In this document: positions 13,826 through 14,006 of the stretch, in pieces
Layout: each line of letters starts with the position of its first letter
Numbering within the stretch: the stretch's first letter is position 1
Assembly: GCA_029932195.1 (NCBI GenBank)
Contig: JAOZQN010000003.1
Location: 1 to 45,644 of the forward strand
Length of the DNA stretch: 45,644 nt
Direction of reading: 5' to 3'
DNA from: Bacteroidales bacterium
GTDB taxonomy: Bacteria > Bacteroidota > Bacteroidia > Bacteroidales > JAOZQN01
The notes under the pieces: model-generated
Told to the model about the DNA's origin: nothing
The model's database searches: none
Seen by the model: the letters and a program-made list of their open reading frames with translations, nothing else
Made by a program: the position numbers and the translations under genes

Positions 13826-14006
13826 ATCATTGTGAGCCGTGTGAGTTGTAAAGTTATTCGTTTTTTTTGACAATTCCAAATTAAAATGACTTTGTTTTTT
13901 TTAAATTATAGATTAACTTACAAACAGTAAGGATAATAGCTTTAAGAAATATAAAAAAAGAAAACTAAATGTTTTACATTATCCTCCTCTACTTTTCAAA
14001 GTGAGC
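13826..14006 (-). repeat. A-type dispersed repeat (long form) with a promoter-like pair facing the ATPase operon
   Basis: On the minus strand: TTTG (13877..13880), 20-nt spacer, TAACTTTA (13849..13856). Its termini are homologous to the B-type termini (GCTCACTTTGAAAAGTAGAGGAGGA ... TTTACAACTCACACGGCTCACAATGAT). About 90% similar to 29578..29752 by eye. Confidence 0.7.

Follow-up and report, generated by a model that had tools for sequence, protein, structure and literature searches.

The window, by which we mean the whole stretch of 45,644 nucleotides that was analysed, has a G+C content of 30.5%. It encodes the type IX secretion markers PorP/SprF, Por_Secre_tail and CHU_C together with parts of an extracellular contractile injection system (eCIS), and its Bacteroidota origin is therefore sound. 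We found the window in hydrothermal-vent metagenomes only. An AAA_21 ATPase gene and its DUF4276 partner (32680-34743) match, end to end, the PADLOC candidate defence system HEC-01 A/B, with E values of 8e-139 and 9e-38; because this pair is joined by an AriA-like pair and two YhcG genes, the window is a defence-rich region. Dispersed among its genes are four copies of an A-type and three of a B-type repeat (Table 1).

We recovered all seven copies that the original prediction had listed, as repeat families D2, D5, D6, D10 and D12. Family D2 comprises the A copies (4658-4763, 7669-7774, 13804-13909 and 29557-29662), D5 pairs A3 with A4 (13816-13957 against 29569-29710), and D6 pairs B1 with B2 (11569-11675 against 27233-27339, 97% identity), to which D10 adds 6060-6100. 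The degenerate 3' core TTTRCAACNNNNAYNNNNNNCAATRAT occurs exactly in every A arm on the minus strand (4680-4706, 7691-7717, 13826-13852 and 29579-29605) and in every B arm on the plus strand (6073-6099, 11637-11663 and 27301-27327). With up to two mismatches allowed, this core has 8 matches in the window, against 0.35 expected; the eighth, at 22815 and with two mismatches, was set aside as a chance match. The outer block GCTCACWTTRAAAARTNGAGGAGGA, for which 0 matches are expected, lies at 13982-14006 and 29727-29751 on the minus strand and at 11570-11594 and 27234-27258 on the plus strand. A profile search of the window with nhmmer returned no copies beyond the known seven. A1 is the most diverged A copy (64% identical to A2), and neither A1 nor A2 has the outer tip or the hairpin described below. 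The boundaries of A4 are set by loose ends of contigs at 29569/29578 and 29753.

Table 1. Arms of the A/B repeat family, predicted elements within them and associated genes (positions in the window)
Feature	Position	Strand	Description or evidence
A4, long promoter arm	29570..29753	-	Outer tip, hairpin, promoter block, inner core, leader; found by repeat, profile and motif searches
A3, long promoter arm	13815..14007	-	Copy named in the original prediction; 88% identical to A4 over 142 nt
A2, short promoter arm	7681..7774	-	Promoter block and core only; 5' edge is the end of homology to relative L032
A1, short diverged promoter arm	4670..4760	-	No B partner; abuts a separate 231-nt MITE
B1, promoter-less arm	11569..11675	+	Outer tip, hairpin, core; faces A3 across the ATPase cargo
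B2, promoter-less arm	27233..27365	+	Inner extension GCTGACATGTTTTTTCATATCGGACACGGCT; decayed YhcG gene reads into B2
B3, arm truncated on outer side	6057..6135	+	No tip, no hairpin; inner extension as in B2
Predicted promoter in A4	29602..29633	-	-33 TTTG 29633-29630, 20-nt spacer, -7 TAACTTTA 29609-29602
Equivalent predicted promoters, other A copies	13849-13880; 7714-7745; 4703-4733	-	
Subterminal hairpin of A4	29683..29730	-	Stem AGGATAATG/CATTATCCT; z -2.5 to -3.35 against shuffles across arms
Equivalent hairpins	A3 13930-13985; B2 27257-27295; B1 11593-11631	A3 -; B2 and B1 +	B stems GAGTAATT/AATTACTC
B1..A3 cargo	11674..13736	-	AAA_15/AriA-like ATPase (508 aa) and 179-aa partner (PDC-M29A/B-like); unique depth ~15
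B2..A4 cargo	27295..29545	-	MORN-repeat lipoprotein (198 aa), short ORFs, YhcG/DUF1016 (PDC-S02) pseudogene
B3..A2 cargo	6235..7665	-	476-aa secreted protein, no family match
Accessory block missing from L032	3108..7760		A2, 476-aa gene, B3, 281-aa secreted protein, MITE, A1, 61-aa ORF, three hairpin repeats, intact YhcG#1

Read 5' to 3', the A and B arms are composed of the same parts, an outer tip, a hairpin and an inner core. The tip, GGCTCAC...GAGGAGGA (GGCTCAC W TTRAAAARTWGAGGAGGA), agrees between A and B at 23 of 27 positions and is inverted around the cargo; the core, TTTACAACC...CAATGAT, agrees at 20-25 of 35 positions. What separates the two is the stretch between hairpin and core: A arms have about 70 nt more there, in a block that contains the -33 box, whereas in B arms the core follows the hairpin almost directly, without a -33 box. 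A B arm can be read, from this alignment of parts, as an A arm minus the promoter block. The termini that the original prediction had described as common to A and B are thus indeed common, but B is not a separate family: it is the same 5'-to-3' element on the opposite strand.

The arrangement of the arms is regular. Along the window the order is A1, then the pairs B3 A2, B1 A3 and B2 A4, with every B on the plus strand and every A on the minus strand. The cores of paired arms face each other over 1.6-2.3 kb of cargo while the tips point outward, and the B arms sit at the 3' ends of the cargo, facing inward. Convergent arms bracket the cargo in all three cases (B3..A2, B1..A3 and B2..A4). The idea that A and B are independently scattered modules was not borne out by this layout, in which they are the inverted arms of one unit that encloses its cargo three times out of three.

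The YhcG/DUF1016 gene in the B2..A4 cargo (27295-28404) is decayed: near 28240 a TAG stands in frame at a Trp codon position, and with the native stop gone the frame continues into the B2 arm. B arms often adjoin the 3' ends of YhcG genes. We considered YhcG as a part of the element itself and rejected this, since no arm is present on the contigs that hold four close YhcG relatives (L026-L029); YhcG is cargo. Intact YhcG relatives (85-94% protein identity) are widespread in unrelated metagenomes. The 281-aa and 476-aa proteins were also considered, as hidden transposases, and rejected; both have signal peptides and no family match.

The consensus of the Bacteroides primary sigma factor (sigma-ABfr), as given in PMC7366714, is TAnnTTTG at -7 with TTTG near -33. 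The window has exactly four matches to the pattern TTTG-N(19-20)-TAnnTTTR-CAAC, where 0.02 would be expected, and every A copy contains one of them. The -33/-7 motif with 19-20 nt spacing that had been proposed for the A copies is present throughout: TTTG stands in 4/4 copies, the spacer is 20 nt long except in A1, where it measures 19 nt, and the -7 boxes are TAGCTTTG in A1, TAACTTTG in A2 and TAACTTTA in A3 and A4. Across the family in vent metagenome contigs, the last base of the -7 box (29602 in A4) varies between A and G, and G, which gives the canonical TAnnTTTG, accounts for 40-57% of the depth; this base and one base just upstream of the box are the only common variants inside the promoter. 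Similar -7 boxes, at comparable distances, precede several native genes of the window, and so the organism appears to use this promoter type.

Each A copy is aimed at a nearby minus-strand gene start, again as proposed. Counted from where the core ends, the first plausible ATG comes after about 52, 25, 89 and 33 nt for A1-A4, respectively, and the downstream genes encode a 61-aa ORF, the 476-aa secreted protein, the AAA_15 ATPase and the MORN-repeat lipoprotein. The listed ORFs at 7716 and 29632 are artificially extended from TTG codons, as had been suspected; their signal peptides begin at 7665 and 29545. From the motif and its placement, the A arms are predicted to act as promoters.

Promoter-bearing sequences before unrelated genes could arise in a simpler way than by movement of a bracketed unit. 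The arms might be regulatory modules copied by recombination or gene conversion, that is, putative mobile promoters (PMPs), and not the ends of a transposable unit, an explanation that we consider somewhat unlikely. A would then be a promoter-plus-operator or leader reused before new genes, B a 3'-end module (insulator or terminator), and the common core a putative binding site of one regulator, whose regulon would consist of accessory genes. The position of the core, which overlaps the -7 box and the predicted start, is typical of an operator. The family is also a mosaic of blocks, with internal breakpoints at 29639/29640, 29620>29712 and 11632/11638, and this too is consistent with modular copying, as are the existence of short A forms without tips and the tipless insertion edge at A2. 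The definition of PMPs in PMC3575422 asks for 80% identity or more across 50 nt or more in front of non-homologous genes; A3 and A4, 88% identical over 142 nt, precede the non-homologous ATPase and MORN lipoprotein genes. As PMC3575422 describes them (after Matus-Garcia, Nijveen and van Passel 2012), PMPs resemble our family in that similar promoter-bearing non-coding sequence precedes unrelated genes of one genome, by a means of spread that this source presents as not settled. However, PMPs are there mostly pairs, whereas the arm family has tens of copies, and the family differs from PMPs as portrayed in that source in being two-armed, with a promoter-less inverted partner at the cargo 3' end and sharp common termini. 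Simple reuse of a promoter explains neither this inverted copy at the far end of each cargo nor the outer motif in which both arm types end, nor does it explain the cargo-less abutment of B and A inner ends described below; moreover, tens of near-identical copies exceed the usual yield of recombination alone. The original prediction of a promoter-delivering module family accordingly needs amendment: the family is dispersed, high-copy and homogeneous, with a motif directed toward unrelated genes, but its members look more like the ends of cassettes than like free promoters.

The hairpins differ in sequence between the A and B stems while their pairing is kept through compensatory changes. Such conservation would be expected if the conserved part acted as RNA, either as a small RNA or as a cis-acting 5' leader, with structure rather than DNA being conserved and copied. 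The A4 arm as a whole folds somewhat better than its shuffles (z -2.37), and a common leader would sit on every cargo transcript. Nevertheless, we judge this reading to be very improbable. In A arms the hairpin lies upstream of the predicted promoter and hence outside the transcript of the cargo; the predicted leader, itself short, diverges between copies after CAATGAT; and the whole B arm folds no better than shuffles (z 0.09). Searches against Rfam gave no family match, either at gathering thresholds over the whole window or at E values up to 1 over 27150-29850.

We estimated the abundance of the family from Logan contigs of vent runs aligned to the window, in which unique sequence has a depth of about 15 (run X1). 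At 90% likeness the depths summed over the arms came to 560-890, and at 80% likeness they reached up to 1086. The arms thus lie at 40-70 times the unique depth, while the cargo lies at unique depth. These values suggest tens of arm copies per genome equivalent, an estimate that is based on metagenomes and to which close relatives may contribute. In both arm types, the first G of GGCTCAC is exactly where contigs from many loci part from the window sequence (11568/11569, 27232/27233, 14006-14012 and 29753), and on the inner side contigs from other loci diverge just past CAATGAT. At likeness of at least 80% the family is nearly invariant, with few variable sites. This uniformity fits a recent spread, and because of it sequence conservation is no argument for selection on the promoter boxes.

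Further contigs bear on mobility. In single-copy contigs we found joints without cargo, in which the inner end of a B arm runs directly into the inner end of an A arm (6097>7681, 11661>13824, 27313>29572, 11675>13815 and 27342>29572), at depths of 9-17; they are suggestive only, as the shorter side of these contigs spans just 21-32 nt. Other contigs contain arm variants with internal deletions (13867>13954 and 29620>29712). In the relative L032, the genes for the tail tube, the AAA ATPase (89% protein identity), the eCIS-core protein and a 295-aa protein follow one another in this order, with an 80-nt spacer after the ATPase. The distance from ATPase to eCIS-core gene is 80 nt in L032 as against 4.66 kb in the window. 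Homology to L032 breaks off at the 5' edge of A2 (7760) and picks up again at 3107. The accessory block in between is composite, with no B arm at its far end; from its content it looks like several piled-up insertions. Since the 5' edge of A2 is an edge of inserted DNA even though A2 has no tip, tips are dispensable for at least some insertions. Over a wider span (973-20026 against L030-L032), the tube, AAA ATPase and eCIS-core proteins are conserved, and the flanks are completely different among relatives; in L030, nSTAND1 genes stand upstream of the tube gene in place of the Y_Y_Y protein. Within the accessory block, a GAAACAnnTGTTTC hairpin occurs in every one of three tandem units of 35 nt between the 61-aa ORF and YhcG#1 (4333-4448).

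The sequences flanking the units are equivocal as target duplications: TTAGTT surrounds B1..A3 with one-base offsets, and only ATG surrounds B2..A4. No empty site for either of these two units was seen in eight runs, X3-X8 among them, and contigs with an identical flanking protein had the same arrangement as the window. A scan of 28 window proteins against Pfam found no transposase, recombinase, invertase or integrase, and no autonomous copy of the element turned up. The genome also contains a classical MITE of 231 nt that has 24-nt terminal inverted repeats TAATTAGTGTCTGGACGGAAATAG and no relation to the A/B arms; its two copies in the window (4765-4995 and 20183-20413) are 99% identical, one of them abuts A1, and its unitig depth of 608 against about 15 for unique sequence corresponds to roughly 40-fold. 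The presence of such a high-copy element indicates that transposition is active in this genome.

We propose a single family of non-autonomous, transposase-less cassettes that resemble mobile insertion cassettes (MICs) and MITEs and have A and B as their two inverted arms, a reading to which we give somewhat less than an even chance. A complete unit, read on the cargo strand, would consist of the tip GGCTCAC..GAGGAGGA, the hairpin, an inward promoter block of about 70 nt, the core TTTACAACCCGCACGGCTCACAATGAT, the cargo, and then core, hairpin and tip in reverse as the B arm. Under the primary sigma factor (sigma-ABfr type), transcription would begin a few nt into the core, at predicted starts within CAACCCGCAC, about 5-10 nt past the -7 box in A arms; none is predicted in B arms. 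Every cargo would then be expressed from the promoter of the element, with a common 5' leader and regardless of upstream sequence, and the subterminal hairpins may shield the unit from outside transcription. Units would multiply in the genome with or without cargo, presumably by means of an enzyme encoded elsewhere. Transposition as a unit and action in trans are steps that we infer. An inward promoter in one end, often the left, is the usual layout of insertion sequences.

Several lines of evidence favour the cassette reading: the convergent bracketing of cargo in three of three cases, the agreeing tips, the divergence points common to many contigs and the hairpins in both arms, together with the excess depth, the uniformity of the family, the cargo-less joints, the deletion variants, the exact motif, the comparison with L032 and the neighbouring MITE. 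Against it stand the lack of a transposase in the window, the equivocal flank duplications, the tipless arms A1, A2 and B3, and the far end of the accessory block, which is not a B arm; the missing empty sites, the short sides of the joints and the dependence of copy numbers on metagenome depth also count against it. So does the inner core, because strong conservation beside the cargo is unusual for transposon ends.

Inverted repeats around every cargo would also be expected if the arms were the sites of a site-specific invertase and the units were phase-variable switches, in which flipping the cargo relative to the fixed promoter of the A arm would switch its expression on or off. The candidate pairs of sites are the two inner cores or the 12-mer GGCTCACAWTGA, which occurs only four times in the window, in the tips of B1 and B2 and, inverted, in the cores of A3 and A4. 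In units without cargo, the roughly 300 nt between the tips, promoter included, would amount to a classical inverton. Invertons are plentiful in Bacteroidota, and their promoter regions form dispersed families that a single invertase serves, as in the Mpi system of Bacteroides fragilis. In the relative L030, an unrelated inverted pair of 23 nt surrounds about 75 nt just upstream of a gene. We regard inversion as distinctly improbable here, given that the tens of copies and the cargo-less junctions are left unexplained by it. The window contains no invertase gene, although a distant, globally acting invertase could serve. Strand-switch joints were absent from six contig alignments, which is weak evidence because assembler contigs drop minority forms. 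The L030 pair consists of GTAAGTCCAAGCTCCAGCTTGGA and TCCAAGCTGGAGCTTAGACTTAC (L030 5195-5320), lies upstream of the gene that follows the AAA ATPase, and has the look of an invertible promoter.

A bolder form of the cassette reading, which we think unlikely, is that the family represents a new self-contained expression cassette of Bacteroidota, made up of a promoter arm and a closing arm around interchangeable cargo (defence candidates and secreted proteins), present in tens of copies and moved or flipped by a further enzyme. In one version, the inverted GGCTCACAWTGA/core repeats may be invertase sites, with the cargo switched relative to a fixed promoter at many loci together.

Among known systems, the MICs or transporter ISs described in PMC3129680 have IS-like inverted ends around passenger genes with no transposase inside, and related cargo-less MITE forms occur in the same genome, as appears to be the case here. 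MICs have a known cognate IS that shares their ends, and they show target duplications (PMC3129680), whereas our window holds no transposase and the flanks are equivocal. The Bacteroides invertons share with the arm family the dispersal of promoter-bearing segments, bounded by inverted repeats, before unrelated accessory loci of Bacteroidota. Invertons, however, are about 150-400 bp long, hold the promoter between their repeats and are served by an invertase that lies nearby or acts globally, whereas the arms enclose 1.5-2.3 kb of coding cargo, no invertase gene lies in the window, and no second orientation was seen in assembler contigs. Correia elements of Neisseria are 100-155 bp long and have 26-bp terminal repeats, a TA duplication and promoters that point outward into flanking genes. 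The arm promoter, in contrast, points inward into the cargo, the arms are unequal and 110-190 nt long, and the flank duplications are equivocal. As described in PMC3575422, Correia elements are MITEs that resemble the arms in being small, abundant, non-coding, bounded by inverted repeats and able to supply promoters to neighbouring genes. Integron gene cassettes are likewise short accessory or defence units with recognizable repeat bounds that are packed into a host locus; they are promoterless, with a single attC end and an adjoining intI gene, and differ in this from units with their own promoter, two inverted arms and no integrase nearby. Reading the arms for attC sites, we rejected this identity, as there is no integrase and no attC-type R''/R' pair (GTTRRRY core). 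CRISPR and tRNA-linked islands were rejected as well, the window having neither an array nor a tRNA.

Searches of 185,579 species genomes, JGI metagenome contigs, viral contigs and Rfam yielded no copy of the arm family. The core pattern did match at 5 sites in the species genomes and 15 in the JGI metagenome contigs; these lie in unrelated contexts without the adjoining repeat, are about as many as chance provides, and were rejected. A search of viral contigs with the outer tip gave no match, and a protein-index search with concatenated repeat-encoded peptides returned nothing. As a sequence family the arms are new and restricted to one uncultured vent lineage. The phenomenon in general is familiar, both as abundant promoter-carrying repeats and as IS-like ends around passenger genes; the traits that make this family a variant are its unequal arms, its inward promoter serving the cargo and its promoter of Bacteroidota type.

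If the arms are promoter-equipped ends of cassettes, this would explain how new defence and surface genes are expressed immediately, given that the promoters of this phylum differ from those of most donors, and how such genes are wedged into conserved operons, here the contractile injection system locus. The arm sequences could serve Bacteroidota genetics as compact, naturally portable promoter and insulator parts. The immediate value of the family, from one uncultured vent lineage and with predicted activity, is as a well-delimited study case rather than as a new principle.

The genome is unusually rich in other intergenic repeats. A 36-nt repeat, TTGGCTTTTGGCCTCGCAAAGCGACAAAAAACTAAG, is present in inverted copies at 14013-14048 and 37448-37483 (97% identity, about 4-fold metagenome depth), one of them just outside the tip of A3. 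Intergenic blocks at 21-56, 20410-20540 and 41673-41983 share 45 nt at 98% as well as 56 nt and 36 nt inverted at 86-94%, and link the start of the window, the side of the second MITE copy and the spacer upstream of the gene at 40013-41554. Finally, about 390 nt between a nitroreductase gene and a TPR/SpoIIE phosphatase gene (42740-43130) are densely filled with tandem units of 8 and 15 nt (TTTTGAGTTATCGTG-like), which are then inverted, with arms up to 93% complementary; this array is a candidate for an iteron-like or regulator-binding region.
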